The notes under the pieces were generated by a model. That model was not told where the DNA came from. It did not search any database and saw only the letters and a list, made by a program, of their open reading frames with translations. Positions 1,464 to 60,828 of a stretch of 64,000 nucleotides of DNA are shown in pieces. The stretch is from Centroscyllium fabricii (Eukaryota). The stretch is taken from positions 331,266,001 to 331,330,000 of the forward strand of contig JBNRSN020000003.1 in NCBI GenBank assembly GCA_051313645.2. The letters run 5' to 3'. The translations under genes and the position numbers were made by a program. The first letter of the stretch is position 1. Each line of letters starts with the position of its first letter.

Positions 1464-1706
1464 TGACGTATCGTCAAGGTCTTCAATTAAAAGAGTCGAC
1501 GCGTAGTTACCGAAACTAAAGGCTTTTAATTACTAAAGAACGGAGCTACTCTCCAGACGAACTACTGTACAGGAATGGATGGAGCCTCGGTCAGACCACA
1601 CCTATATCGGGGCCTCACCTGGGGGAGGGGTCGGGGGTGTGGCTGACCTGGCTCCCAACAGAGTCACAGTAAACAGGGCTGTGCCTAACATCTGCACAGC
1701 CCATCA

Positions 1707-4560
1707 TTAGCCATGGTGATACAGTGGTATAACTGATATAGAACGGTTACCACATTCACCCCTTCTTAAAAACTTTGAGTCCGGGGGGGGTGAATGGATC
1801 GAACAGTTCATAATTAGTCTGTCCGGCGGTCGTGTCTGCCTGGAGGACCGTCGGCGCTCCGGTGTTGGCGGCGGTGCCTCCTGTGTCAAATGGTCCGCAT
1901 CTGCCGGCGCTGTGACTTCATGTGGCGGTGGGCTCGGCTGGTCCCCGCCGTCCGGGTCGTAGTCGGGGAAACTCGGGGGCCATCTTGCGTCTGGTGGTTG
2001 GTCGACCTGCAGGCCAGCAGGGGGCGCTGTGGTGGTGTTTCCGGCAGGGGCCAGGTCCCTGATGGACACGGTGTCCTCACGCCTGTCCGGGAACTGCACG
2101 AAGGCGTAGTGCGGGTTTGCGTGTAGGAGCTGTACCTTGTCCACCAGGGGGTCCGTCTTGTGGCTCCGGACATGCCTTTTAAGCAAAACCGGCCCCGGAG
2201 TCGTCAGCCATGGAGGGAGAGCTGTCCCCGAAGTCGACCTCCTGTTAAAAAAGAAAATCAGATCGTGCGGGGTGGCGTTAGTAGCAGTACATAACAGGGA
2301 GCGAATAGAGTGCAGCGCATCTGGGAGGACTGTCTGCCAATGGGACACTGGAAGGCCTCTGGACTTAAGAGCCAGGGTGACCGCCTTCCAGATGATCCCA
2401 TTCTCCCTTTCTACCTGGCCGTTCCCCCGGGGGTTATAACTGGTCGTTCTGCTCGTGGCAACCCCTCTCTGGAGCAGAAACTGGCGCAGTTCATCGCTCA
2501 TGAACGATGACCCCCGGTCGCTATGGATGTAGCTGGGGAGACCGAAGATGGCGAACAGCGCGGTGAAGTGTTTGATCACCGTTGCGCTCGTCATGTCTGG
2601 GCAGGGGAAGGCGAAGGGGAAGCGGGAGAACTCATCCACTACCGTGAGGAAGTATGAGTTGCGGTCGGTGGAGGGGAGGGGGCCTTTGAAGTCCACGCTG
2701 AGACGTTCAAAGGGGCGGGTGGCCTTGATGAGGTGCGTCGTGTCTGGCCGGAAAAAGTGGAGTTTGCACTCGGCGCAGACAGGGCACTCTCGGGTCATAG
2801 CCTTGATCTCCGTGATGGAGTAGGGGAGGCTACGGGATTTGACGAAATGGGCGAGTCTGGTGACACCCGGGTGGCAAAGGCGGTCGTGGAGGTCCTTCAG
2901 CCGGTCTAGCTGGGCACTGGCGCATGTTCCCCTGGACAGAGCGTCAGGGGGTTCGTTGAGTTTGCCTGGTCGGTAAAGAATGTCGTACTCGTAAGTCGAG
3001 AGTTCGAACCGCCACCGCAGGATCTTATCATTCTTGATTTTACCCCGTTGTTTATTATTAAACATAAACGCTACCGACCGTTGGTCGGTGAGCAGGGTAA
3101 AACGCTTACCGGCCAGGTAATGACGCCAGTAGCGCACGGCCTCCACGATGGCCTGGGCCTCCTTTTCCACTGCTGAGTGGCGAGTTTCGGGTCCCTGTAG
3201 GGTGCGGGAGAAAAACGCAACGGGCCTGCCTGCCTGATTCAGGGTGGCAGCAAGGGCGATGTCCGAAGCGTCACTCTCCACCTGGAAAGGGATGGATTCA
3301 TCAACAGCGAGCATGGTCGCCTTGATAATATCTTCCTTTATCCTTGCGAATGCCATTTGGGCTTCCACAGAGAGGGGGAAGACAGCAGCCTTGAGGAGTG
3401 GTCTAGCCTTATCTGCGAACTGTGGGACCCATTGTGCATAATAGGAGAAAAATCCTAGACATCTCCTCAAGGCTTTGGGGTTGTGAGGTAGGGGCAGTTC
3501 TTGCAAGGGTCGCATACGCTGTGGGTCGGGGCCGAGGAGCCCGTTCTCCACCACGTATCCGAGGATGGCGAGCCGGGCTGTATTAAAGACACATTTGTCT
3601 TTGTTATACGTGAGGTCCAGCTTAGCCGCCGTGGCGAGAAATTTGGCCAGATTGGCATCGTGGTCCTGCTGGTCGTGGCCGCAGATGGTCACGTTGTCCA
3701 GGTAAGGGAAGGTGGCCTGCAAGTGGTTTTGGTCAACCATACGGTCCATCTCCCGTTGGAACACTGACACTCCGTTGGTCACGCCAAAGGGGACCCGGAG
3801 GAAGTGGTAGAGCCGACCGTTCACCTCGAAGGCGGTGTAGGGGCGGTTGGCTTTCCGAATCGGGAGCTGATGATACACCGATTTAAGGTCGATCGTAGAG
3901 AACACCTTGTACTGGGCGATCTGATTGACCATTTCTGAGATGCGGGGAAGGGGGTAGGCGTCGAGCCCGGTGTAGCGGTTGATAGTCTGGCTGTAATCGA
4001 TAACCAGCCGCTGTTTTTCGCCAGACTTCACCACTGCAACTTGGGCGCGCCAGGGGCTGGTGCTGGCTTCAATTATCCCCTCCTTCAGCATCCGCCCGAC
4101 CTCCGACCTGATAAACGTGCGATCACCCTCACTGTACCGCCGACTCTCAGTGGCAATGGGTTTGCACTTCGGATCGAGGTTGGCGAACAGCGAGGGGGGG
4201 TCGATTTTCAGGGTGGAGAGGCCGCAGGCCGGGCTCCGCTTTGGGAGGAGATTGTCCCGGCTACTGACGGTGAGGGGGGTAAGGTCCCGCCGAACTCCAT
4301 TGTCACACTCCTGAAGTGGCACTGGAAATCCAAACCTAGTAAGGCTGGGGCACACAACTGTTGGAGGGTATACAATTTAAAATTACGGTACACGTGCCCC
4401 TTGACGGTGAGCGTGACGGAGCAGTAGCCGGTGACGTCCGCGGTGTGGGACTGTGAAGCTAGGGAGACTTGGTAGTTGGTGGGCAGGACCTGCAGTCCGC
4501 AGCGCCGCACTGTATCAGGGTGAATGAAACTCTCAGTGCTGCCTGTGTCGAAAAGGCAGT
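1707..4560 (-). CDS. Gypsy B protease-RT-RNaseH-integrase (frameshifted near the protease)
   Basis: CLFDTGSTESF at ~4530-4560; LVIDYSQTIN, YLDNVT, ESDASD, EAQA, TDQRS; HHCC; HSDRGSSF, NGQVER. Confidence 0.92.
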
Positions 4561-4660
4561 CGACAGTATGATCATTAATGCTAATCGGTATTATTGAGTT
4601 AGACAGGGTATGGGGCCTGCCCTGGCTAACTCTGATTCTGGCTGCCGCAGCCCCTGCTGA

Positions 4661-6004
4661 TCAGGGCTGTGCACAAGATGGCGTCGCCCCTGGCTCGCAC
4701 ATGGAGGGGCCCTGGATACAAGATGGCGTCGCCCCTGGCCCGCAGCTGGTGGGGCCCCGTATACAAGATGGCGCCGCCCCTGGCTCGCACATGGAGGGGC
4801 CCTGGATGCAAGATGGCGTCGCCCCTGGCCTGCAGCTGGTGGGGCCCCGTATACAAGATGGCGTCGCCCCTGGATCGCACATGGAGGGGCTCTGGTTGCA
4901 GAATGGCATTTCTGAGGGGACGCACGCGGTGGGGCCCTGTGAACGCGCTGGCGGCACCCGTGATTCGCACGCAGCGAACCGCGGTGATCGGGTTGGCGGT
5001 GCCCGTGATTCGCACGCAGCGAACCGCGGTGGTCGGGTTGGCTGTGCCCGTGATTCGCACGCAGCCGGCCGCGTTGGGGGGTCACGCTTGGCCGGCCTTT
5101 GTTGCATCAGGGTGGGGGATGGGGGCGCTTGTTGTTTACCCCCGTACCTTCGCTGGATCGCGCTGCTAATGCAGCTTACCTGGTCTCTGTCGGTGCTCTC
5201 ACAGGCTGCACTGTTGTACCTTTGGTTAGACGCTGCTGGAGCTGATCTGCAGGCTTTGGCGTAGTGTCCCTTCTTTGCACATTTCTCGCAGGTCGCTGTC
5301 CTGGCTGGGCATTTCGCTCTAGGGTGCAGTCCCTGGCCGCAGAAGTAACAGCGCTTGCTTTTAACGTCTTTAGTGGCCGTCGCGGCCATCGTGGGGGCCT
5401 CGGCCCGTGGCGCCCAGGCCTGGGCCTGTTGTGGCGCGGCCCATATGTTGTAGGCTTGCGGGTTAGTGCCACTGTACGCCTGTAACTTGCTACGGGCCCC
5501 CTCTACCGATTTGGCTAACGTAGTCGCCTCCTCGAGGGATAAATTGTCTCTCTCTAGTAGCCGCTGGCGGGCTTCCACACACCTCAGTCCTGTGACATAA
5601 GCGTCCCGAACGAGGAGTTCTTCCTCCTCTGCAACAGTTGTGCCTTTGCAGCCACAGGCCCGTACCAGGGCCAGGAGCGCTTGCTCAAACTCCTCATTTG
5701 ACTCACCCGGTAGTTGAGGTCTGGTCGCCAGCACATGTCGGGCGTAGACCGAATGGACCAGGCGCACGTAACATTTCTTTAAAATTTGTATAGTCCTTTC
5801 GTAGGTTGAGGCGTTCCTGACGAGGGTGAATACCCTGCTGGAGATCCTTGATCGCAGGACATGCAGCATGTCCTTGTCTGATGTAGCCTCGGCGGCTTCC
5901 ATGTAGGCCTCCAGAAGGCCGAACCAGTGTTCGAAGGTAGCGGGAGCAGCAGGGTCCTGGGGACTGATGTCCAGCTTCTCAGGCTTAACTGTGCTGCTAT
6001 CTAT
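4661..6004 (-). CDS. Gypsy B gag with two CCHC zinc knuckles and a repetitive C-terminal tail
   Basis: CYFCGQGLHPRAKC and CEKCAKKGHYAKAC. The frame extends upstream to an ATA at 6004, probably a mutated ATG. Confidence 0.88.
   Translation of the reverse strand: MDSSTVKPEKLDISPQDPAAPATFEHWFGLLEAYMEAAEATSDKDMLHVLRSRISSRVFTLVRNASTYERTIQILKKCYVRLVHSVYARHVLATRPQLPGESNEEFEQALLALVRACGCKGTTVAEEEELLVRDAYVTGLRCVEARQRLLERDNLSLEEATTLAKSVEGARSKLQAYSGTNPQAYNIWAAPQQAQAWAPRAEAPTMAATATKDVKSKRCYFCGQGLHPRAKCPARTATCEKCAKKGHYAKACRSAPAASNQRYNSAACESTDRDQVSCISSAIQRRYGGKQQAPPSPTLMQQRPAKRDPPTRPAACESRAQPTRPPRFAACESRAPPTRSPRFAACESRVPPARSQGPTACVPSEMPFCNQSPSMCDPGATPSCIRGPTSCRPGATPSCIQGPSMCEPGAAPSCIRGPTSCGPGATPSCIQGPSMCEPGATPSCAQP
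4673..5065. repeat. Two 45-bp tandem repeat blocks in the gag tail (ABABA block at 4673-4897, second block at 4957-5065)
   Basis: Five units start CAAGATGGCG with alternating ends; three units contain CCCGTGATTCGCACGCAGC. Confidence 0.9.
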
Positions 6005-6325
6005 TTTAAAATAATTTAGTAATTAAAATTGACGTATCGTCAAGGTCTTCAATTAAAAGAGTCGACGCGTAGTTACCGAAACTAAAGGCTTTTAATTACT
6101 AAAGAACGGAGCTACTCTCCAGACGAACTACTGTACAGGAATGGATGGAGCCTCGGTCAGACCACACCTATATCGGGGCCTCACCTGGGGGAGGAGTCAG
6201 GGGTGTGGCTGACCTGGCTCCCAACAGAGTCACAGTAAACAGGGCTGTGCCTAACATCTGCACAGCCCATCATTAGCCATGGTGATACAGTGGTATAACT
6301 GATATAGAACAGTTACCACACTGAC

Positions 6326-7583
6326 CGACCCCGATCTGCTCGACCCAGCTACCAACCTCCCCGGCCTGCTCTTGGCCACCGTAGCACACGGGCCCACAGC
6401 CACGGAGGTCCGTTGCGACGTCTCCCTCCCGCAGCCCAGACCCGTCGTCCCCCACGCATGGAGGCGACACATCTTCCAGACCCTCCATGACCTGTCCCAC
6501 CCCGGCGTCCGCGCGTCCACAAAGCTGATCTCTGCGCGTTTCGTTTGGCGCGGCCTGCGCAAGGATGTCCGCGCCTGGACCAACACCTGCAATGCCTGCC
6601 AGCGCGCCAAGGTGCACAAGCACATCAAGGCGCCACTTGAAACGATCGCCATCCCAGCTAGACGCTTCAGCCACGTCCATATTGACTTGGTCGGACCACT
6701 ATCACCATCACGGGGACATACACATGTCATGACCATGGTCGACCGCAGCACCCGCTGGCCAGAAGCGGTCCCCCTCACCGCTACCACCACCGCGGACCTG
6801 GCCAGGGCCTTCATTGCCACCTGGGTCGCACGTTTCGGCGTCCCCGACATCACGTCAGACAGGGGCCCCCAATTTACCTCAACCCTATGGGCAACCATCG
6901 CCCATGACCTCGGGGCAACCCTGCACCGAACCACCGCCTACCACCCACAGGCCAATGGCCTCTGCGAGAGGTTCCACCGCTCCATCAAAGCTTCCCTGCG
7001 GGCCAGCCTTAAGGACGCGACCTGGACCGACTGCCTGCCCTGGGTAATGCTCGGCCTGCGTTCAGCGGCCAAAGAAGACCTGCACGCCTCAGCGGCGGAA
7101 CTCGTCTATGGCCAACCCCTAACCATACCGGGCGAGTTCATCGCGGACACCAACGAACCCTGGTCAGCCGACCGCTGCCTCAAGGAGTTCAATAACCAGG
7201 CAGCGGCGTTCAAACCACTTCCGGTGGCCCGGCACGGAGAGCCGGCTGCACGTGTTCCAGATGGCATCGAGAATGCCAAGTATGTGTTTGTCCGCCACGA
7301 CGCACATCGAACACCACTACAGCCACCGTACGACGGACCGTACAGAGTGCTTCGGGCGGGACCTAAAACGTTCCAGATAAAAATGGGCAACAGAGCTGAG
7401 ACTGTCTCAATCGACCGGCTCAAACCGGCACACGTAATGGCGGGCGAGACAACAGTCCCCGCGCAGTCACCAAAACGCGGACGCCCTACCGCACCAAAAC
7501 CCGCCCACACTCCCACGCAGAACAAGGAGCAGCGCACAACACATGCTGGCCGCATCATCAGGCCACCTCAACGCCTCGCCTGA
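6326..7583 (+). CDS. Gypsy A pol, integrase portion
   Basis: H-H-C-C motif (HDLSHPG...CNAC), DLVGPL, SDRGPQF, NGLCER, YDGPY. Confidence 0.92.
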
Positions 7584-12549: not shown

Positions 12550-12960
12550 GGGCGGCACGGTGGCATAGTGGTTAGCACTGTTGCCTTACAGCACTAGAGA
12601 CCCGGGTTCAAATCCAGCCTCGGGTACTATCTGTGTGGAGTTTGCACATTCTCCCCGTGTCTGCGTGGGTTTCCTCCGGGTGCTCCGGTTTCCTCCCACA
12701 GTCCAAAGATGTGCGGGTTAGGTTGATTGGCCATGATAAATTGACCCTTAGTGTTAAGGGGATTGAATATGTGGGGTTACGGGGATAGGGTGGGATATGT
12801 GTCGGTGCAGGCTCGATGGGGATCAAGAGATATGGGGACAAGGCAGGGACAGGGTACTGGGTTTGGATGATCAGCCATGATCTCGTTGAATGGCGGAGCA
12901 GGCTCGAAGGGCCGAATGGCCTACTCCTGCTCCTATCTTCTATGTTTCTATGTTTCTATG
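12550..12960 (+). mobile_element. HE1-type V-SINE (tRNA head, V domain, CR1-like tail)
   Basis: A/B-box head (TGGCATAGTGG, GGTTCAAATCC), V-domain core GTTTCCTCCGGGTGCTCCGGTTTCCTCCCAC, tail (TTCTATG)n. Confidence 0.88.
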
Positions 12961-14580: not shown

Positions 14581-15602
14581 GAAACGTGACGTCAGTGGCT
14601 TCTCATTCGTCTGCGGCCTTTTGCTGCACGCTTGTAAATCAGTGTGACAATGGGGGTGGCACCACCGCTCCTGTTTCTCACTGATTGGCTGCTTCCACGG
14701 CCACCTCTACAGATTAACACTGTGTGCGGTCGGAAATTGATTGAGGGATACAAAATGGGTGGCCGCTGGTTGCGTTGAACAGGTAGTCATTCTGTACAGG
14801 GCTTACAATATGGTATTTCTCTCGGGGGGAATCCGATGTGGCTGCTATGAACAGGTGGCCATTCTGTAGAGGTGGCCACTGTTGTATCTATGCTGCAATA
14901 CATTCAATCAAGCATGTAGATACATCGCATTAAATCACAGTTCAGTCAGACAGGTTTAAATTCACTGTTCACTTTATTCCCTAAGATGGCTTCTGCCTCA
15001 TGGCTTCTGCTGGTAGTTCCCACAATGCCATGCACATTACATACCGTAATACCTAGTGTAAACTCACATCTTATATTACCGTATTACCTGGTGTAAACGC
15101 ACAATCAATACACGACATCCCCCTTTTCCTTGGAAGCAAACTTTTAGTTTACAAACAGTTTCTTACAATAACACTGTACAACTTGTTTGGTTTATAAACC
15201 TTTTGCAAACTTGTGTCTTATCACACAACTATATAATTCCATATTTACACTGTACATTTAACATCCCCCATGCAGTTCTCGCAGTTTATGTTGTGACATA
15301 ATCAGACAACCTTTGGGGTTTTCTTTTAATCCTTTGAAGTCTGGCTGTATTGGGTATGTCTGACATGTTGTTGTCCGTGGGTATTGCCTGTGTCACAGTG
15401 GTATGTGTCTCAGAGTCTACTATACTGTCCTCAGTCCCTTGTGTTTCCTCCTGCTCATGGAGTGTCTCCTTTGGTCCATCGGTTCTGTATTTCTTCACAA
15501 ACGTAGTGTTTCTTGAGTAGCGCGCTCCGTCTGAAGATTCTACTACTACTTGACTCCGTTTTCCTCAAAACTGTGAGGTGTGGCATTAGAAGGAGTGGTG
15601 TA

Positions 15603-16285
15603 CTTGTCCCTTTGAAGATTTGAGACAATAGATTTGTAAAGGTTTGATCTGGGGTTGATCTTCATAATTTGTAGGAGATCTCTTGCCATAAATACCTCAT
15701 TTTGTAGCTGTTGTTCCAGTATCTGTTTATGGCTTTGATATTCATCCTCGTCAAGCTTTCTGGAACATTCTGCTTTCTTCAATTCCGCTTGAAGAGCTCA
15801 ATGAGCAGTGGTGGGTTGGTTTAGTATTTCACACAATTTATGATTTTCACAACGAGCTTCATCAAGCTGTTTCCTCAGCCCCTTGATCTCAGCATGAAGT
15901 TGTACATTTTCTTCCACCAATTCATGCCAATGTTCCTGCTATTTCTGAAGTCTCTCAATAGCATTCTTCTCTCGTGTGATCAACATTTCAGACTTCATCT
16001 GATGCATTTTATCTAACTTCCTTCTGACCTCTTTGATATCCTTGTGCGACCGCTCTTGCTCCTGAATCCGGACCTTAGCCAATTCCAGATCCTTAAAATG
16101 CTGTAGCTCTTGCTGCATCTCTGCCTGAAGCTGTTCTTCTATTTGTTTGTGATATACAAGCAGTTTTGTTTCCCAAAAGTCCTCTTGCACATTTGCTGGA
16201 TGAAGTGCTGCATATTCTTCATCAACCACATGAAGTTTATCAACAATAGATTCCTTGCACTGTGGAAGCAGCTGGTCTAAGTTTC
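15603..16285 (-). pseudogene. OFD1: Intronless, rearranged OFD1 cDNA fragment inside Gypsy C
   Basis: Translates to ET*TS..ESIVDKLHVVDEEY..QIEEQLQAEMQQELQHFKDLELAKVRI..REKNAIERLQK*QE, then ..LRKQLDEARCEN..QAELKKAE..LEQQLQNE, then VFMARDLLQIMKINPRSNLYKSI. These match recalled human OFD1 segments [41 protein letters not shown] and [23 protein letters not shown]. Three stops and one frameshift. Confidence 0.88.
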
Positions 16286-17393
16286 TACCACCGCTGAGAC
16301 ATCTGCGCCTATTTTTAAAACTCCCAGTTTCATGGCTGTCTCCCTTCCTAGCAATGGTTCTCCAGGGGCTTTGACCACAATGAACTCTGCCTGCTCAGTT
16401 CTCTTACCTATTGTAATCCCACATGTGAATATACCTTTAACTGACAGTGGTCGGCTCGAAGCATAAGAGCATAACTTTCTCTCTGTCTTAGGGACATGTG
16501 ACTGACCCTTAATGTGTTCTGACTTTAATTTTTCCCAGGTATTCTCATCTATTACATAATTGGTTGCACCTGAATCAATTAAAATTCTCAGGTTTACTCC
16601 TCCACACAAAAGGTAAGTCTGTCTGTCATGTTATTTCCAGTAACAGTAAATGCAAGTCATTTTGTTCCACTACATTGTTCACACTGTGTTTCTTTGCATC
16701 CTTTGTGTGGCACATTTTGGAGAAATGATCCTTTCCCTTGCACTTATGATACATTTGTCTGCGTGCTGGGCATTTCGGATCTCTGCCCATGTGGTCTGTG
16801 TGTCCACATATGTAGCATTTCCTTTCGTTGCAATCGCCATTTCCCTTTGGGTTCTCTGACGAGCTTTTTGCCTGATACCCTCTTTTCCCTGTAACACGAT
16901 GAACAGTATCTGTCTCCGCCATCTCTGTACATGACATGGCTGACATCTGCTCAATGTTTTCACATTGTGAGGCCAGTTGTAACATGTGGGCGAGTGTTAG
17001 ATCTTGCCCTTCCTCTAGCAATTTACTCCACACATCGGCTGACATGCACCTACCCAGGATAGCGTCTCTTATTTGATTATCCGCATCCCCCCCAAAAGCA
17101 CAGTCCCTCGCAGCCTGCCGCAAGCGAGTGGCAAATTGTTGCACAGTCTCACCTGTCTTCTGAGACAACTTGTAAAAAGTCTGTCTAGCAAATGCTGCGT
17201 TGACCTGGGGCACGAAGTGGAGATTTAACCGCCGCCGCATAGTCTGCTGGCTCTCCCGTGTCTGGTAGAGTCGAAAAGATATCCTGGACATCTCGTCCTG
17301 CTAAGTGTAGGAGTAAAGCTCTTCTTCTCTGCTTTTCAGCATCTGTAGAGGTATTGTCGATAATGAGTCCTTTGCCATTGGCATAAAGCTCAA

Positions 17394-20300
17394 TTGGAAA
17401 ACACCAGATTGAAAAAGAAAATGGCAGCGCGCACGATCGCAGTGGCTTTGTCTCTCCCGAGACAATTTCTTCACTTCTTCATCTGCATCCTAATCATCTT
17501 AGGTCTGCTCTCTAGGAAAACGAGAGCAGACCTCCGCTACAGCAGGCAAGCCCTTCTCGATATCGGGGCTGGCTGTGGAGCACTTTCACTGGGAGATCGC
17601 GTTCTCGATCTCCCAGCTGAAATTAACAAGGCAGCAGCGGCAGCGTGGAGCCCAGCGGGGGGCCGTCAGAGGCACAGAAGGGAAAGCAGGCAGAAGAGAG
17701 GTAAGAGAGCAGGGGCCCTCAGCAGGCTGATGAGGGCCCCTCTCAAACCCTCTCTGCCCAGCATCTACCTGGCCAATGTCAGGTCCCTAGGGAGTAAAAT
17801 TGGTGAAATTAAACTTGGCCTCTCCACACAGACCAGGATCAAGGAATGCTGCGCCATAATCTTTACAGAGACCTGGCTGAACGACGGCATTCCTGACTCC
17901 GCCATCCAGCTGGCGGGTCACACGGTCTTCCGCGCCGACAGAACCGCCGACTCCGGTAAGAGCAAGGGAGGCGGCCTGTGCATCTACACGAACAACGCCT
18001 GGGGCACGAACGCGGAACTGATTGAAAGTTCCTGCTCCGCCGATCTGGAATTCCTCACTGTAAAGTGCAGACCCTTCTACCTGCCTCGGGAATTTACAGC
18101 CGTCATCTTCACTGCGGTATACATCCCTCCACACGCAAATGCCAAACTGGCACTCAAAGATCTCCACAGGGTCATCAGCGAGCAGCAGACTGCGCATCCG
18201 GAGGGAGCCTTTATCGTGGCGGGGGACTTCAACCACGCTAACCTCAAATCGGTGCTACCAAAATTTCACAAGAATGTCTCCTGCCCCACGAGGGGCGAGA
18301 ACACGCTGGACCAGGTCTACACCAACATTGCAGAGGCTTACAAAGCCATCCCGTGCCCCCACCTCGGGAATTCCGACCACCTTTCACTGTTCCTCGCCCT
18401 AGCATACAAACCACTCATCAAAAGGGTGAAAGCTCCAGCCAAAACAGTCAGAGTATGGCCAGAAGGGGCAGTCTCAGAGCTACAAGACTGCTTCGAACGC
18501 ACTGAATGGAGCATGTTCACTCACACGGACATTGAGGAATACGCATCCACAGTGCTTTTTTACATCAACAGCTGTGTCGAGGTGGTCACTACCCAAAAAA
18601 CAATCAAGACATTCCCCAACCAGAAACCCTGGATGAACGGGGAGGTCCGCTCGCTGCTGAAGGTACGTGACACAGCTTTCAAATCTGGGGATGTGGCGGC
18701 TTACAGCACAGCCAGGGCCAACCTAAAGAGGGGTATCAGGTCTGCCAAACAAAATCAGACACTGAAGATAGAGGAACACTTTCACAACAACTCGGACCCT
18801 CGACGTATGTGGCAAGGCATACAGTCCATCACGGACTACAAGTGCAGAAACACCAGCCCCCCGACCGGCGATGCCTCCCTACCAGAGGAACTCAACAACT
18901 TCTACGCTCGCTTCGACAGGGACAACAGGGAGCCAGCCACCAAAGTCCTGCAATCCCCGGAAGACCAGCCATTAACACTGTCCTGCTCCAACGTAAGAGG
19001 TGCTCTGCGTAGAGTGAACGCACGGAAGGCCGCGGGTCCTGATGGCATCCCCGGCCGGGCACTCAAAGAATGTGCCGACCAACTGGCTGAAGTCTTCACT
19101 TGCATCTTCAACCTGTCACTGGCGAAGGCAGCTGTCCCTACCTGCTTCAAGACCGCCACCATCATCCCTGTGCCCAAGAAAACGGCCGTGACGTGCCTGA
19201 ACGACTACCGCCCTGTCGCACTTACACCCATTATCATGAAGTGTTTCGAGCGGCTGGTCCTGGCCACATCAAAGCCAGCATCCCTGCCGCCCTGGACCAA
19301 TACCAGTTTGCCTACCGTGGGAACAGATCTACAGAAGATGCTATCACTACGGCTCTTCACTCTGCACTAAACCACCTGGATAGCAAAGATACGTATGTCA
19401 GAATGCTGTTTATTGACTACAGCTCAGCATTCAACACCATCGTCTCCAGCAAATTGTCTAACAAACTCCTCACCCTCGGCCTGAACACCTCCCTCTGCAA
19501 CTGGACCCTGGACTTCCTAACCAACAGACCACAGTCTGTGAAGTTAGGCAACCTCACCTCCCCCCCCTTACCCTGAACACGGGGGCCCCACAAGGTTGTG
19601 TGCTGAGCCCCCTCCTCTACTCCCTCTTCACTCACGACTGTGCGGCTGTCCATGGCTCCAACACGATCATCAAGTTTGCGGATGACAACACGGTAGTTGG
19701 CCAGATCACCAACAACGACGAGTCAGCCTACAGGGATGAGATCCAGCGCCTTGTGGGTTGGTGTGCCAACAACAACCTGGCACTGAACACCAAGAAATCT
19801 AAGGAGATCATAGTGGACTTCCGGAGGACTGGAAGCAGAAGACACACCCCCATCTTCATCCAAGGCGCTGAGGTGGAAAGGGTGTCCAGCTTCAAGTTCC
19901 TCGGGGTCCACATCTCGGAAGATCTCTCCTGGTCACTAAACACCTCCTCTCTGGTTAAGAAGGCCCAACAGCGCCTGTACTTCCTAAGGAAGCTGAAGAA
20001 AGCCAGGCTGTCATCCGGCATCCTCTCCAACTTCTACCTCTGCACAATAGAAAGCATACTGACAAGCTGCATCACAGTCTGGTATGGAAATTGCACTATC
20101 TCGGACCGGAAAACCCTGCAGCGGGTAGTCAAAACTGCCCAACGAATCACCGGTACCCAGCTACCGTCAATGGAAAGCATCTACCTCAAATGCTGCTTAC
20201 GGAGGTCTCTGAACATTATTAAAGACCCCACACACCCCAGCCACAGTCTGTTCGCCCCCCTGCCCTCCGGGAGACGCTACAGATCAATTCGCACCCGCAC

Positions 20301-20515
20301 GACTAGATTTCTGAACAGTTTCTTCCCCAGGGCTGTCAGCCTCCTGAACTCTAAAAATAAACTCCGGTACCTGCACGCCTGATAATGTACTTTACTGTAT
20401 GCAATTTGCATGTAATTTATTTGCACTACTCTCGGGAGAGTCGAGTCTTTGTCTCGTTGTATTGTACTAGTACTCTGCAGTGACAATAAAACTTGAATTG
20501 AATTGAATTGAATTG
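17394..20515 (+). mobile_element. Near full-length Rex1/Babar-clade LINE inserted in the gag of Gypsy C
   Basis: APE endonuclease (LANVRSL, FTETWL, CRPFYLPREF, GDFN, SDH) and RT ([32 protein letters not shown]). Two frameshifts (~19265, ~19565); AATAAA followed by a (TTGAA)n tail. Removing it restores gag WFTSFELYA. Confidence 0.92.
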
Positions 20516-21787
20516 AAGACGTGAACCACCTCGTCCATCTCGGACCCAATGTGGCTGGCTCGGCAAAACATGCAAAATTTTGAATGCCGGTCTCCTCCAT
20601 CCTAACTAACTAAAACTTGGGCACCTACCTATCTAAAATGATTCCGTTTATTTTCCTCGTCGCCAATGTTGTATCTATGCTTCAATATATTCAATCAAGC
20701 ATGTAGATACATCGAATTAAATCAAATCCAGTCAGAGAGGCTTTAACTCAGTGTGTTCACTTTTATTCCCTAAGATGGCTTCTGCCTCATGGCTTCTGCT
20801 GGTGGTTCCCACAATGCCATGCACATTACATACCGTAATACCTAGTGTAGACTCACATCTTATATTACCGTATTACCTGGTGTAAACACGCAATCAATAC
20901 ACGACAGCCGCTAACACAGGTTTGACTGTAATTGGATTTGGAGCATAAGACTGTTGGCCAAAGTACCCATTTCTAATTACTTGGAAGAAACAAAGCTGGA
21001 GTTGGGAACAGAAGTGAAAAGTGACAATGCAAGGATATTCTCACATGGACAATCCATAGAAACTGCAGGGAAACATTGCATTTCACAGTTTAGTGCCTCA
21101 AACTAACGGTTTGTCATTCAACTAAGCATCACCAAGGAAATAAATTTGCATTAAATTGTCTAAATTGTCAGACTGCTTGTCTGACAGCCAGTACTGGATG
21201 AGCAGAAATTTCCTCCAACTAAATATTGGGAAGACCGAAGCTGTTGGCTGGAATTTTGTGTGGTCGTTGCAGGTGCGATTGGAGGCAGGTCGGGTGGGAA
21301 ATTTGAAAAAGGTTGGAGCAGGTCGGAAGCCCGCCATCTTCTCGCCCTCACGCGATTTCCCTTGGGCAAGTTCGCCAGTGCGGCAGCGACCCGACCGGCA
21401 AAGGCGGGCAAGCTAATTCAAATCATGAACAGGTAGTTGTCAGACCCTTAGGAGCCTTTTTCAGCCGACCTTTGAATTTCCCTGGCTGCCCATGGGATTT
21501 ATGCAGCTTGGGAATCACATCTGTCAACCTTAAGTGGGAGTTGAGTGGTCTTTGATCCAGCTGATTAGTTGCCAGCATGAAATGTATTATAAAACCTCCC
21601 ACCTCACAGCTGATCACTTTCCTCGGGCAGATGCTGCTGGCTGCATTCCCAGCACTTTTAGTTTTCTACAGGCCACAAATGCTTCCAGCAAAGTCGCCAT
21701 CTAGTCTCACCTCATTGTTACAACCTATCACTCCACTGACAGCTTGCTCCTCTGATCTCTACTTAACCTGCCATCTATTCCATAAGC

Positions 21788-28419: not shown

Positions 28420-28816
28420 GGGCGGCACGGTGGCACAGTGGTTAGCACTGTTGTCTCACAGCACTCGAGACCCGGGTTCAAATCCAGCCTCGGGTACTAT
28501 CTGTGTGGAGTTTGCACATTCTCCCCGTGTCTGCGTGGGTTTCCTCCGGGTGCTCCGGTTTCCTCCCACAGTCCAAAGATGTGCAGGTTAGGTTGATTGG
28601 CCAGGATAAATTGACCCTTAGTGTTAGGGGGATTAGAATATGTGGGGTTACGGGGATAGGGTGGGATATGTGTCGGTGCAGGCTCGATAGGGATATGGGG
28701 GACAAAGTAGGGACAGGGTACTGGGTTTGGATGGTCAGCCATGATCTCATTGAATGGCGGAGCAGGCTCGAAGGGCCGAATGGCCTCCTCCTGCTCCTAT
28801 CTTCTATGTTTCTATG
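28420..28816 (+). mobile_element. HE1-type V-SINE
   Basis: Near-identical to 12550-12960. Confidence 0.88.
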
Positions 28817-30023
28817 TAATCCAAATGGGAAATCTTCCACTTGTGGCACAATGGAAGTGTGTGAGCATATTTTGCATGTGGACGAGGCCTTCTATTATTT
28901 TCGGAGGTATTCATTTAAAATAATTATTAAGCATTTCCGGCACTCACTAAGCCGTACACTGGGAATGTGGATGCCAGCAAGTGGGAAGCAAGATATACAA
29001 AGCAGCAGCACCCCAAGTCGGCGCTGTACTTCCTTTGCTGTTAAAGTGCAGTTTTCCAATTGGTTCTGGCTGTCTTTGTGAACATAGTCCTTGTTGCAGG
29101 TGTATAAGTTTAACACAATTAATAAGTTTGCCAAGGTTGCCGTGTTAATTTATTCTGGTTTAACATTGAGCAAGACAATGCTTTCATCACAACCAACTGC
29201 ATCATTAGAGCACTCTATAGCCTAAACAATTGGAATGGCAGCTCATATTTATGCAATTATACAATTTCAATGAAATCTTTCAATAATGTTTGGCAAAGGC
29301 CATAAAAGCCACCCCCAAATCCCACTTACTGTACATTCTTGTTTTTGGGGTGTGGGTGCACAATTGCAAAGCAAGCGGGGCTCATTAAAACAGTCAGCAC
29401 TTCACCAGTCTCTATGATTGCAGGAGAAGGAAGTTCACAACCAAGTAATGGACATTGGCACACTCCGCCATAACCCACCTGGAACAATTAACTTTGGAAG
29501 TTGTGGGTCAACACTTGAGAATCAACTATGCTTACCCAATTCTTTTGAAAATGAATCAAAATGGAGCACTTACAGAATGTAATCTTACTTAAGATGTAAC
29601 TCAGTATTTAACCTGCCTGTGTTTTTCATACAAACCTACCATTTTGGCATAGAGAGCCCTCAGCAAGGCTAGGAGTCATAAACATTGCCATTCTCCAACA
29701 GCAGCGTGCATAAATCTTCATTTGGACAATTTGTCAGTTATGAGGGCACGCTGCACTGTTGGAGGTGCTGTCTTTCGGATGAGACGTTAAACCGAGGCCC
29801 CATCTGCTCTCTCAGGTAGACGTAAAAGATCCCCTGGCAGTATATCCAAGAAGAGTAGGGGAGTTCTCCCCGGTGTCCTGGCAAATAGTTCTTCCTCAAC
29901 CAACATCACTAAAACAGATTATCTGGTCATTTATCACATTGCTGTTTGTGGGAGCTTACTGTGCGCAAATTGGCTGCCGGTTTCCTACATTACAACAGTG
30001 ACAACACTTCAAAAATACTTCAT

Positions 30024-35994: not shown

Positions 35995-36154
35995 GTACGT
36001 TAACCAGTCAGTTTGTGCTCCGTGTGGGGCTCAATCTGGGCCGTGACACCGAACCAGTGAGCGGCCCGAGGCTGAACAGCGCCGTAACCCCGACACCGTC
36101 CCCACATCCCCCTCCCCCACCACGGGCATCTCCTACCCCCCACCAGCATCGCCC

Positions 36155-39100
36155 TCCCGACATCCCCCCCCCCCCCCCCCGACATCCCCCACCCCGACAT
36201 CCCCCACCCCGACATCCCCCCCACTCCGACATCCCCCCCCACCCCGACATCCCCCCCACTCCGACATCCCCCCCCACCCCGACATCCCCCACCCCGACAT
36301 CCCCCACCCCGACATCCCCCCCACCCCCGACATCCCCCACCCCCGACATCTCCCCCACCCCCGACATCCCCCCCCACCCCGACATCCCCCCCACCCCCGA
36401 CATCCCCCCCCACCCCCGACATCCCCCCCACCCCGACATCCCCCCACCCCGACATCCCCCACCCCCGACATCCCCCACTCCGAGACATCCCCCACTCCGA
36501 CATCCCCCCACCCCGACATCCCCCACCCCCGACATCCTCCACCCCCGACATCCCCCCACCCCGACATCCCCCACCCCCGACATCCCCCACCCCCGACATC
36601 CCCCACTCCGACATCCCCCCACCCCGACATCCCCCCCACCCCGACATCCCCCCCACCCCGACATCCCCCCACCCCGACATCCCCCACCCCCGACATCCCC
36701 CACCCCCGACATCCCCTCACCCCGACATCCTCCCCACCCCGACATCCCCCACCCCCGACATCCCCCACCCCCGACATCCCCCACCCCCGACATCCCCCCC
36801 ACCCCGACATCCCCCCCACCCCGACATCCCCCCCACCCCGACATCCCCTCACCCCGACATCCCCCCCACCCCGACATACCCCACCCCCGACATCCCCTCA
36901 CCCCGACATCCCCCACCCCCGACATCCCCTCACCCCGACATCCCCTCACCCCGACATCCCCCCCACCCCGACATCCCCCCCACCCCGACATCCCCCACCC
37001 CCGACATCCCCCACCCCCGACATCCCCCACCCCCGACATCCCCCACCCCCGACATCCCCCACCCCCGACATCCCCCACCCCCGACATCCCCTCACCCCGA
37101 CATCCCCCTCACCCCGACATCCCCCCCACCCCGACATCCCCCCCACCCCGACATCCCCCCCACCCCGACATCCCCCCACCCCGACATCCCCCCACCCCGA
37201 CATCCCCCCACCCCGACATCTCCCCCACCCCGACATCCCCCCCACCCCGACATCCCCCCCGCCCCGACATCCCCCTCGGCCCGACATCGCCCCCCGCCCC
37301 GACATCCCCTCACCCTGACATCCCCCCGCCCCGACATCCCCCCCACCCCGACATCCCCCCCACCCCGACATCACCCCCACCCCGACATCACCCCCACCCC
37401 GACATCACCCCCACCCCGACATCCCCCCCACCCCGACATCCCCACCCCGACATCCCCCACCCCCGACATCCCCTCACCCCGACATCCCCCCCACCCCGAC
37501 ATCCCCCACCCCCGACATCCCCCACCCCCGACATCCCCTCACCCCGACATCACCCCCACCCCGACATCTCCCCCACCCCGACATCTCCCCCACCCCGACA
37601 TTCCCCCACCCCGACATTCCCCCACCCCGACATCCCCCCCACCCCGACATCCCCCCCGCCCCGACATCACCCTCGGCCCGACATCGCCCCCCGCCCCGAC
37701 ATCCCCTCACCCTGACATCCCCCCGCCCCGACATCGCCCCCACCCCAACATCCCCCCCCACCCCGACATCCCCCCCACCCCGACATCCCCCCCACCCCGA
37801 CATCCCCCCACCCCGACATCCCCCCCACCCCGACATCCCCCCCACCCCGACATCCCCCCACCCCGACATCACCCCCGCCCCGACATCCCCCCGCCCCGAC
37901 ATCCCCCCCGCCCCGACATCCCCCCCGCCCCGACATCCCCCCACCCCGACATCCCCCCACCCCGACATCCCCCCACCCCGACATCACCCCCGCCCCGACA
38001 TCCACCCGCCCCGACATCCCCCCGCCCCGACATCCCCCCGCCCCGACATCCCCCCGCCCCGACATCCCCCCGCCCCGACATCCCCCCCGCCCCGACATCC
38101 CCCCACCCCGACATCCCCCCGCCCCGACATCACCCCCACCCCGACATCCCCCCCACCCCGACATCCCCCGCCCCGACATCCCCCCCGCCCCGACATCCCC
38201 CCCGCCCCGACATCCCCCCCGCCCCGACATCCCCCCCGCACCGACATCCCCCCCGCCCCGACATCCCCCCCGCCCCGACATCCCCCCCGCCCCGACATCC
38301 CCCCCGCCCCGACATCCCCCCCGCCCCGACATCCCCCCCGCCCCGACATCACCCCCGCCCCGACATCCCCCCCGCCCCGACATCCCCCCCGCCCCGACAT
38401 CCCCCCCGCCCCGACATCGCCCCCGCCCCGACATCCCCCCCGCCCCGACATCCCCCCGCCCCGACATCCCCCCGCCCCGACATCCCCCCGGCCCGACATT
38501 GCCCCCCGGCCCGACATTGCCCCCCGGCCCGACATTGCCCCCCGCCCCGACATCCCCCCGGCCCGACATTGCCCCCCGGCCCGACATTGCCCCCCGGCCC
38601 GACATTGCCCCCCGCCCCGACATCCCCCCGGCCCGACATTGCCCCCCGGCCCGACATTGCCCCCCGGCCCGACATCGCCCCCCGGCCCGACATCGCCCCC
38701 CGCCCCGACATCGCCCCCCGCCCCGACATCGCCCCCCGCCCCGACATCGCCCCCCGCACCGACTTCCCCCCCCCACCCCGACATCCCCACCACCTTGACA
38801 TCCCCCCAGCCCCGACGTCCCCACCGCCTCGACGTCCCCACCGCCCCGACGTCCCCACCGCCCCGACGTCCCCACCGCCCCGACGTCCCCCCCGCCCCGA
38901 CCGCCCCGACGTCGCCCCCCGCCCCGACGTCGCCCCCCGCCCCGACGTCGCCCGACGTCGCTCCCCGCCCCGACGTCGCCCCCCGCCCCGACGTCGCCCC
39001 CCGCCCCGACGTCTCCCCCCCCGACGTCGCCCCCCGCCCCGGGGCCCCCGACGTCGCCCCCCGCCCCGACGTCGCTCCCCGCCCCGACGTCGCCCCCCGC

Positions 39101-40140
39101 CCAGACGTCGCCCCCCGCCCCGACGTCGCCCCCCGCCCCGACGTCGCCCCCCGCCCCGACGTCGCCCCCCGCCCCGACGTCGCCCCCCGCCCCGACGTCG
39201 CCCCCCGCCCCGACGTCGCCCCCCGCCCCGACGTCGCCCCCCGCCCCGACGTCGCGCCCCCGCCCCGACGTCGCCCCCCGCCCCGACGTCGCCCCCCGCC
39301 CCGACGTCGCCCCCCGCCCCGACGTCGCCCCCCGCCCCGACGTCGCCCCCCGCCCCGACGTCGCCCCCCGCCCCGACGTCGCCCCCCGCCCCGACGTCGC
39401 CCCCCGCCCCGACGTCGCCCCCCGCCCCGACGTCGCCCCCCGCCCCGACGTCGCCCCCCGTCCCGACGTCGCCCCCCGCCCCGACGTCGCCCCCCGCCCC
39501 GACGTCGCCAACCGCCCCGACGTCGCCAACCGCCCCGACGTCGCCCCCCGACGTCGCCCCCCGCCCCCGACGTCGCCCCCCGCCCCGACGTCGCCCCCCG
39601 CCCCGACGTCGCCCCCCGCCCCGACGTCGCCCCCCGCCCCGACGTCGCCCCCCGCCCCGACGTCGCCCCCCGCCCCGACGTCGCCCCCCGCCCCGACGTC
39701 GCCCCCCGCCCCGACGTCGCCCCCCGCCCCGACGTCGCCCCCCGCCCCGACGTCGCCCCCCGCCCCGACGTCGCCCCCCGCCCCGACGTCCCCCCCCGCC
39801 CCGACGTCCCCCCCCGCCCCGACGTCCCCCCCACCCCCGACGTCCCCCCCACCCCGACGTCCCCCCCACCCCGACATCCCCCCCACCCCGACATCCACCC
39901 CCACCCCGACATCCCCCCCACCCCGACATCCCCCCCACCCCCGACATCCCCCCCACCCCCGACATCCCCCCCACCCCGACATCCCCCCCACCCCGACATC
40001 CCCCCCACCCCGACATCCCCCCCACCCCGACATCCCCCCCTCCCCGACATCCCCCCTCTCCGGCATCCCCCCCACCCCCGACATCCCCCCCACCCCCGAC
40101 ATCCCCCCCACCCCCGACATCCCCCCCACCCCGACATCAT
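36155..40140. repeat. ~4 kb C-rich minisatellite (15-18 bp units, core CCCCGACATC / CCCCGACGTC) in IFT74 intron 1
   Basis: Continuous tandem units with position-dependent variants and extreme C/G strand skew. Confidence 0.95.
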
Positions 40141-40959
40141 TCCCCTTCCTCAACACCCCAGCTCCCGACATCACTCCCTTTTTGTTGTCATTCCAACCCC
40201 CACACATCTCCCACCTCTCCATCTGCCCCCCCTTCCCGCCATACCTCTCCCTCCTCCCCACTCCCCAACATCTTGACATTCCCGACAACAAATACAAATC
40301 ATAATGTTTGGCGATCCAAAGCCAATGCTATATTTTTTCAAAAATTAACTTCCAAGTATTAAAGTTTTTTGCTGATTTCAGTATACCTCCAGTTTACACT
40401 GTAAATTGACCCCATTCGTATATCCTATTTATACCTCCAGTCTATTTATACTTTTCCTGATATTTATGTTATATATTTAGCGCTGCTTTGAGAAATCATA
40501 CAAACCCCAAGCCAATGTCCTGAAGCCAAGATAAACTCACAGTGTTGCTTAAATTTGTTTTCAGAACTCATCAGTTTGTGGCTTTCAGATATTTCATGCT
40601 AATCTCAGATTAGTATAAACAATGGAAGGTTTGAAATCACAACTTCCCAACATTTTTTCTGTGTTTTCACACTGATATCTGACATCATCTGCAGTTTATT
40701 GACCATCTTTATTATTGACAAATATCTGAGCAGTTGTTTGATGTATAACTAACTGTCTTTCCCTTTCCATTCACAGACTGTGCTGTTCACCATTGTTGTA
40801 TGAGGTCATTTTCTTATCTTTCAATGACAATTCTTACTTGTTTTAGTAGAATTAGTTTCTATTTAAAACGTGTTACATTATCATCAGTGGAACGCGTGAC
40901 TGACCTGTTCCAAGTTGGTGTTAAATCAGTCACAGAGGTGTGTCGGCAGTGAGCAGCGT

Positions 40960-45852: not shown

Positions 45853-46242
45853 GGGTGGCACGGTGGCCCAGTGGTTAGCACTGTTGCCTTACAGCACTGG
45901 AGACCCGGGTTCAAATCCCGCCTCGGGTACTATCTGTGTGGAGTTTGCACATTCTCCCCGTGTCTGCGTGAGTTTCCTTCGGGTGCTCCGGTTTCCTCCC
46001 ACAGTCCAAAGATGTGCGGGTTAGGTTGATTGGCCATTATAAATTGACCCTTAGTGTTAGGGGGATTAAATATGTGGGGTTACGGGGATAGGGTGGGATA
46101 TGTGTTGATGCAGGCTCAATAGGGATCGAGGGAGAGGGCAGGGGCGGGGTACTGGGTTTGGATGATCAGCCATGATCTCATTGAATGGCGGAGCAGGCTC
46201 GAAGGGCCGAATGGCCTACTCCTGCTCTTATCTTCTATGTTT
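45853..46242 (+). mobile_element. HE1-type V-SINE
   Basis: Same family as 12550-12960. Confidence 0.87.
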
Positions 46243-46469
46243 ACTGAAAAAAGTACAGTACTTCAATTTTCGGCCCTCTTCTGGGCCCGTTGCTCCTGGT
46301 GAGACTCCCAGAACCAAGCACTGAATGCGGCTGCTGAGAGTTAAAACAATGTGGAAGTACGAATGATGTCGTCAGACCCCAAGTTTTGAATTTCAATGAG
46401 GCCCTTGTCTGGCTGGTGTGAGGGTCTCACTGACTGGCCAGAATGCACCTGCTAAAAGCAAGGTGTGCG

Positions 46470-57286: not shown

Positions 57287-57453
57287 GACACGGGGATAGG
57301 GTGGGATATGTGTTGATGCAGGCTCGATAGGGATATGGGGAGAGGGCAGGGGGGGTGCAGGGTTTCGATGATCAGCCATGATCTAATTGAATGGCGGAGC
57401 AGGCTCGAAGGGCCGAATGGCCTACTCCTGCTGCTAGTTTCTATGTTTCTATG
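57287..57453 (+). mobile_element. 3' fragment of an HE1-type SINE inside the RTE
   Basis: Matches the SINE 3' half and the (TTCTATG)n tail. Confidence 0.75.
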
Positions 57454-57523
57454 ACACTCCATAATCCCTCACAATTGACAGTGTCAAAGGCCTTTGTGAA
57501 GTCAAAGAACGCCATGCACAGCG

Positions 57524-60449: not shown

Positions 60450-60828
60450 TCACGGACGACACGGTGGTGCAGTGGTTAGCACTGCTGCCTCACAATAAGG
60501 AGCTCCTGGGTTCGAATCCTGCTTGGCCCAGGACCTCTCTGCGTGGAGTTTGCATGTTCTCCCCGTGTTTGTGTGGGGTTACTCCGGTTTCCTCCCACCA
60601 CCCAAAGACATGCAGGTTAGGTAAATTGGAGATACTAAAAAAAAAAATTGCCCATGGGTATGTGTGTGAGATACAGTTCTTAGAGTTGGGGGTGTCGGGG
60701 GATATGGGGAGAGGCTAGGAGGGGGGTGCTGGGTTTGGATGATCAGCCATGATCTCATCAAAAAATGGCAGAGCAGGCTCGAAGGGCCGAATGGCCTACT
60801 CCTGCTCCTATTTTCTGTGATTCTGTGT
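60450..60828 (+). mobile_element. V-SINE variant subfamily inside the RTE
   Basis: tRNA head (TGGTGCAGTGG, GGTTCGAATCC), V domain, (TTCTGTG)n tail. Confidence 0.85.

Follow-up and report, generated by a model that had tools for sequence, protein, structure and literature searches.

A circularly permuted OFD1 cDNA in a family of Gypsy-type LTR elements of Centroscyllium fabricii, probably copied from a circular RNA

Known systems and the window element

Circular RNAs lack poly(A), which L1 requires. In the model of retroviral oncogene transduction, a defective LTR element transports host exons with the aid of a helper. In mouse, 42 circRFWD2 pseudogenes, 33 of them high-confidence, occur with MMERVK10C-int sequence and LTR-rich flanks; their mechanism was called mysterious, and only LTR enrichment in the flanks was reported (PMC4897178, Dong et al. 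2016). In LTR-mediated retrocopies, as outlined by Tan et al. 2016, internal ORFs are replaced between two LTRs with microsimilarity at the switch points, the templates are treated as linear mRNAs, and the copies are few; the word "circular" does not occur in the main text of that paper (PMC5131818).

We analysed a window of 64,000 nt of the C. fabricii genome (contig JBNRSN020000003.1, positions 331,266,001 to 331,330,000), in which an OFD1-derived insert lies inside an LTR element. Like circRFWD2, it has a non-colinear exon junction found in many genomic copies, no poly(A), and an association with an LTR element; the junction falls at exact splice sites, and only exons of the supposed circle are present. 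Unlike circRFWD2, it comes from a shark and a Gypsy-type element, has at least 235 copies, has both switch points mapped to a helper, and comprises exactly one turn. As described for LTR-mediated retroposition (PMC5131818), cDNA replaces ORFs between paired LTRs, microsimilarity occurs at the switches, several genes form chimeras, and a non-autonomous product is re-mobilised; unlike those retrocopies, the OFD1 template appears circularly permuted and was amplified to hundreds. Host exons on a defective LTR element with a helper are likewise known from maize Bs1 and HERV-K/FAM8A1 (PMC5131818). As in splice-capture during oncogene transduction, a piece of a second gene, PMFBP1, starts precisely at an exon acceptor that lines up with a donor-like AG|GTGAG in the reverse transcriptase (RT) region. 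The OFD1 chimera differs from oncogene transduction, Bs1, and FAM8A1 in having no env, no sign of protein-level selection, and a permuted circle as its first cargo.

The kind of copy is already known from circRFWD2, and the OFD1 family adds stronger mechanistic evidence. An initial sequence-only reading of the window noted that circRNA-derived pseudogenes occur in mammals and knew of none inside an intact two-LTR Gypsy element of a cartilaginous fish; LTR-associated circRNA copies were already described in mouse (PMC4897178). No circRNA copy from fish or from a Gypsy element, no one-turn capture with mapped switch points, and no circOFD1 was found in the open-access literature.

The element occupies the minus strand and consists of the following features (window coordinates).

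20667..20906, minus: 5' LTR, 240 nt, TG...CA, 14 mismatches in 237 aligned nt against the 3' LTR
20666-20656, minus: PBS, directly after the 5' LTR
16629..20599, minus: gag region with zinc knuckles, broken and interrupted by a LINE (Pfam Retrotrans_gag, E 5.4e-5)
17394..20515, plus: APE+RT LINE of 3.1 kb within gag, in opposite orientation, with a (TTGAA)n tail (Pfam Exo_endo_phos, RVT_1, ALKBH8_N)
16284..16630, minus: aspartic protease, running up to the 5' switch into OFD1 at c.478/479, with G(T/C)AGA microhomology
15934..16285, minus: OFD1 c.478-830, 94.9% against the host gene, a 1-nt gap and two stop codons; part of E6 at 16285-16244, E7 at 16243-16107, E8 at 16106-15934
15893..15933, minus: PMFBP1 cDNA remnant; 15933-15913 unique, 15912-15893 a PMFBP1/OFD1 look-alike crossover stretch
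15696..15912, minus: OFD1 c.1329-1545, 92.6%, one stop codon; part of E13 at 15912-15827, whole E14 at 15826-15696
15695..15696, minus: back-splice-type junction, the final E14 base adjoining the first E4 base
15604..15695, minus: OFD1 c.313-404, 93.5%; whole E4 at 15695-15627, part of E5 at 15626-15604
15289..15614, minus: C-terminal tail of the helper-element integrase
15118..15135, minus: polypurine tract
14880..15117, minus: 3' LTR, 238 nt

The target-site flanks are GCGGC on the left and GTGGC on the right and agree at 4 of 5 positions. The minus strand from 16280 to 15549 is read in a single frame with two internal stops. At E<=0.001, 139 proteins matched the insert, the best being shark OFD1 (Pristiophorus japonicus, 6.7e-86; Heptranchias perlo, 2.4e-80). 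The BLAST blocks covered aa ~166-277, ~444-515, and ~105-134, the last one out of order. Pfam gave nothing above threshold for the OFD1 insert and a sub-threshold match to TACC; a PDB sequence search gave seven weak coiled-coil matches and no OFD1. The three minus-strand blocks in one frame, with an early frameshift (a 1-nt gap near 16268), had been recognised from the letters alone; the second block was misplaced, as OFD1 resumes at about 15912 and not 15932, with PMFBP1 between. The element had also been taken for intact, which it is not: RT, RNase H, and most of the integrase, including its core, are gone, and the LINE sits in gag. The window element is non-autonomous and represents a deletion derivative of its family, probably a late one. 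The LINE, near full length and presumably Rex1/Babar-like, is missing at the same gag site in the sister copies that span it. Its family also interrupts a helper copy (L118, 95%), and insertions with similar tails break chimeras L122, L125, and L126, one of them 4 nt past the back-splice junction.

Other repeats were noted in the window. A second, younger LTR element (1464-6326, minus strand) has 297-nt LTRs that are 98% identical and an 889-aa ORF for RT, RNase H, and integrase, preceded by a 453-aa ORF that contains 45-nt repeats and matches nothing in Pfam. Positions 36000-40300 hold ~4 kb of C-rich tandem repeats of 15-18 nt with GC up to 86% and extreme skew. SINE-like dispersed repeats of ~400 nt lie at 12550-12953, 28420-28817, 45853-46248, 57290-57454, and 60460-60828.

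The exon-exact junction and the extent of the cargo

Host OFD1 was found by protein search on the minus strand of contig C335 of the same genome (7.2 Gb). Its 15 coding exons, recovered within the 150 kb examined, are bounded by GT/AG and keep the reading frame open. Exon numbers are presumed by analogy to the human gene; the lengths were measured in this genome and are 69 (E4), 31 (E5), 108 (E6), 137 (E7), 174 (E8), 107 (E9), 120 (E10), 74 (E11), 92 (E12), 190 (E13), and 131 nt (E14). E4-E14 correspond to c.313-1545, or 1,233 nt. Closed into a circle, this unit is a multiple of three, remains stop-free when doubled, and contains seven Met codons. The junction 15696/15695 coincides with the exact E14 donor and the exact E4 acceptor of host OFD1, as had been predicted by comparison with the human gene. 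At c.1538 and c.321-330, on either side of this junction, the host sequence differs from that of the copies.

The same junction could in principle come from an RT jump on normal linear OFD1 mRNA at a common AG|GT, combined with two switches between element and mRNA. RT jumps were frequent in the family (20 distinct junction classes mapped), and the mRNA sites of the E14 end and the E4 start do have AG|GT in common. These 4 nt are all that they have in common, so the extended microhomology that could have explained the junction away is missing. Moreover, of 9,679 possible backward jumps within c.1-2272 with at least 4 nt of microhomology, only 10 are exon-exact on both sides, the ends of the insert must also meet within 4-9 nt, and the other OFD1-internal jumps, in copies L130 and L131, are never exon-exact on both sides. 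We find this explanation scarcely credible.

A genomic rearrangement or two-step capture would require that OFD1 had been duplicated in tandem, or that an element which already had E6-E14 was spliced to host E4. Local duplication did happen at this gene: a lone intron-flanked E6 duplicate (G000:C335:27966261-27966484) and a 54-nt E6 fragment (G000:C335:27964568-27964621, spanning c.428-481) lie 160 kb upstream of OFD1, and splice-type capture probably occurred for PMFBP1. Against this, the 250 kb read upstream of host OFD1 contained no intron-flanked duplicate of E14 or E7-E13, exon 3, which lies outside the circle, was single-copy genome-wide (1 of 1 candidates), and no element remnant was present within the OFD1 gene span read. 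The mRNA of relatives is colinear, and the ends would still have to meet by chance. A linear tandem duplication, named at the outset as one of three findings that could overturn the circular reading, was not encountered in the 250 kb read upstream, and a genomic origin is very unlikely. The 54-nt fragment bears the c.477 allele of the captured copies. A chimeric element copy lies 215 kb upstream of OFD1 on the opposite strand (G000:C335:28024680-28030275).

Copy L121 was compared with public contigs from four of 20 sequencing runs (X1, X2, X9, and X17); contigs drop rare forms. X1 and X2 each gave one colinear OFD1 contig covering E3-E15, and the ends on either side of the back-splice were left loose. 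No contig crossing the E14-E4 back-splice was seen in X1 or X2, in contigs from which rare forms are dropped. The insert ends of copy L121 join with no letters between them in X1, X2, and X9 and with seven letters in X17. In X9 (organism C, presumably RNA), contigs covered all 30 bins and included a joint matching the protease class of junctions, and X1 and X2 had no contigs over the element interior. This is a weak hint that the family is present in one relative and absent from others.

The junction 20-mer occurred exactly 235 times in the genome and its reversed control once; given a decay of ~3% per copy, 235 is a floor on the copy number. The insert query returned 1,038 candidates, and the best 40 scored were all full length with 94-100% identity. 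The OFD1/PMFBP1 junction query returned 736 candidates (best 40 scored). The three-block plan of the window was found in 30 of 30 copies examined. All 49 mapped copies are intronless and limited to c.313-1545 apart from the junction overlap; none begins before c.475 or holds E3 or E15 beyond the AG|GT overlap, where E15/E16 presence was checked by protein search with 45 candidates scored. There is no poly(A), since the 3' ends of the copies run straight into integrase sequence.

Longer copies define the full extent of the cargo. A query with the E5-E6 part absent from the window gave 12 matches, namely 8 element loci (one twice), the host exon, and two E6 duplicates. The long 3' arm ended at c.468-470 in 9 of 9 element loci, including L122, and none passed the start. 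Copy L121 runs from c.475 to 1545 and then from c.313 to 470, with a later 243-nt insertion and its 8-nt duplication. Copy L122 contains c.475-1545 and 322-468 around a later LINE, and L046, L124/L125, and L127 contain c.484-1545 followed by c.313-469/470. The longest single copies thus hold 1,224-1,229 of the 1,233 nt, which is one turn minus 4-9 nt and never more. Two further observations concern single copies. The flanks of L004 and L019 carry a second OFD1 piece (from c.1099) ~1.4 kb past the main insert, which suggests adjacent or tandem chimeric elements. A 35-nt unit close to the start of the 3' LTR of L127 has grown into a tandem array of about seven.

Switch points, the second captured gene and the history of the family

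The helper family comprised 803 candidates; among the best 40 scored, 38 matched the element half only, at 98-99%. The helper copy used as coordinate reference (L120) is ~4.6 kb long, with ORFs in the order gag-protease, RT, RNase H, integrase according to Pfam; this length leaves no space for env. We take it to be a Ty3/Gypsy element on the basis of its Pfam families. In L121 and L122, helper positions 2484-4027, which extend from the RNase H start to the integrase tail, have given way to the OFD1 turn. Element ORFs are replaced, not interrupted, by the cargo, with microhomologies at the switches (4-10 nt at most junctions). The 5' junctions fall into four classes (protease, RT start, mid-RT, and RNase H), all entering OFD1 at c.475-484. 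The 3' junctions form three classes, which leave OFD1 at c.470, c.404, or c.1540. The c.404 class, to which the window copy belongs, has a 6-nt GGACAA microhomology and more integrase restored; therefore, recombination with helper RNA is implied. In the c.1540 class (5 loci), the back-splice junction is lost.

In the direction of minus-strand synthesis, c.470 would be the entry into OFD1 and c.475-484 the exit. The entry junction has only 1 exact nt and a loose match of 7/12 to the host allele; 64 of 1,948 sites are as good, and 3 sites reach at least 9/12. The exit site with the c.477 allele of the copies (8 of 8) has a 10-nt match to the RT site and is among about the five best switch sites; four other sites have matches of at least 10 nt to the element. 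For a linear template with uniform exit, the chance of the ends meeting within 10 nt is ~0.7%, and it is perhaps up to about 5% by our estimate when weighted by microhomology; the coincidence of start and end is less improbable because the exit site ranks among the best switch sites.

These sites bear on the main rival, a linear trans-spliced exon-repeat OFD1 RNA with E1-E14 joined to E4-end, on which RT would have used equivalent sites of both repeats since both element sites resemble c.470-484. Such an RNA would yield the identical exon-exact junction, and trans-spliced linear RNAs exist and get mistaken for circles, as PMC10450196 describes. The look-alike motif common to entry and exit agrees with it, as does the lack of flanking inverted repeats: introns 3 and 14 of the present gene have no inverted-repeat pair at E<=1e-5, and 30 other intron pairs have one. 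However, a repeat does not force a length of one unit, as element matches of at least 9 nt are available in 28 of 155 10-nt bins, and the entry site matches the host allele no better than many others do. Sequence from outside the circle was present in 0 of 49 copies, and E3 is single-copy. We therefore regard a trans-spliced template as improbable.

Many copies carry ~700 nt of PMFBP1 between E8 and E11/E13. The identity of this piece follows from two matches among 1,235 candidates, both pmfbp1 (E 5.5e-42 and 1.4e-35), and the host gene was located on contig C667. The captured piece consists of six exons, colinearly spliced over 69 kb of the host gene, with 92-97% identity. In a single locus, L123, the start of the piece coincides with an exon acceptor, facing the donor-like site in RT, and its end lies within an exon, where 10 nt match OFD1 c.1099; the alignment at the start suggests entry by splice-capture. 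The window copy retains 21-41 nt of PMFBP1. The 150 kb of PMFBP1 examined contained no element remnant. A PMFBP1 24-mer occurred 324 times, and the host exon was absent among the 100 matches listed. In the host, roughly the first 745 codons of PMFBP1 are spread over at least 840 kb (G000:C667:49.77-50.61 Mb), with gaps of more than 100 kb between matched exons. PMFBP1 has a testis role, and it is plausible that OFD1 and PMFBP1 are both germ-line transcripts.

The copies diverge from the host by 6.2% (4.1-8.2, n=49) and from each other by 5.9% (1,125 pairs). At 28 sites, 19 of them synonymous, at least 80% of the covering copies differ from the host, and these differences are common to all classes. 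In 6 of 9 cases in which an amino acid differs, the copies agree with most of six outgroup chondrichthyans; therefore, the host changed after capture. The tree of 46 copies and the host was star-like and poorly supported, and the order of subfamilies was not recovered; it excluded copies that lacked a class label or more than 60% of the columns. Judging from these sequences, the family has one old origin, because the near-fixed differences are common to all classes, the changes match the outgroups, and the tree is star-like. Both LTRs were delimited in 3 of 11 copies tried and differ by 5.9, 6.0, and 5.5%. Shark substitution rates are 0.5-2e-9 per site per year, which roughly places the amplification burst ~15-60 million years ago.

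Protein-level selection on the cargo was considered and rejected. Private changes (323 nonsynonymous, 25 stop, 114 synonymous) and those common to at least four copies (37, 1, and 14) match the neutral expectation of 0.70/0.06/0.24. The gag-pol frame, read by translation, was kept through the cargo in 18 of 20 junction classes; the exit at c.470 and a deletion present in one copy (L055) break it. Microhomologies are in frame at background rates of 0.36-0.54, and at 0.45 the excess has P = 3.6e-5. It was 13 of 14 for classes in at least two copies (P = 2.5e-4) and 9 of 11 for classes first found by DNA searches (P = 0.015); protein searches favour in-frame matches and bias the class set. An RNA-level frame constraint on the family is a moderate lead and not a result.

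Origin of the insert and its significance

We propose that RT switched templates to a circOFD1 packaged along with the element RNA, copied through the back-splice, and exited where it had entered, and we put the probability of this reading at roughly 0.85. The template was very probably a circular RNA; its circularity is deduced from the arrangement of the copies rather than observed. A circRNA of exons 4-14 had been suggested as the template from the window alone, and the longer copies, with almost exactly one turn, support it. According to this reading, a Gypsy-type LTR retrotransposon would have co-packaged the back-spliced RNA of 1,233 nt. During minus-strand synthesis, RT would have departed from the element RNA within the integrase tail and moved onto the circle in exon 6, at c.470. 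From there it would have copied backwards through E6, E5, and E4, over the back-splice into E14, and round to c.475-480. On reaching its own starting point, it would have returned to the element RNA by microhomology, either because RNase H had removed the template or because the circle was nicked there. A limit of one turn imposed by RNase H is consistent with tandem copies of circles having been obtained with RNase H-minus RT, as PMC6721031 describes. The two-LTR product, being non-autonomous, was presumably mobilised to several hundred copies by helper elements. Later, the chimera may have recombined with helper RNA and lost RT by deletions, and spliced PMFBP1 was probably taken up from the RT donor-like site into a PMFBP1 exon, together with a template switch.

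If correct, the OFD1 family offers a concrete route from circRNA to pseudogene by co-packaging and template switching with a one-turn limit. It predicts that LTR-borne circRNA copies are circular permutations of at most one unit, and that RNase H-poor routes could give concatemers. Copying of circRNA would extend from mammals to cartilaginous fish and from ERV-K to Gypsy, with copy number up about tenfold. In RNA-seq of this lineage, the hundreds of back-splice junctions present in the genome will give false circOFD1 calls. The stop-free, in-frame circle could support rolling translation.

A wider interpretation, to which we give about even odds, is that the family is a fossil left when a covalently closed host circRNA was reverse-transcribed for a single turn inside a retrotransposon particle, RNase H having imposed the limit. 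Its non-autonomous elements would number up to about a thousand, and the active lineages among them would have been selected for one ORF from gag through OFD1/PMFBP1 to the integrase stop, at the RNA level (e.g., by escape from nonsense-mediated decay) and not for amino acids. The family would then be a dated record of a germ-line circRNA, the stop-free E4-14 circle having been present, some tens of millions of years back, in the germ line of a shark.
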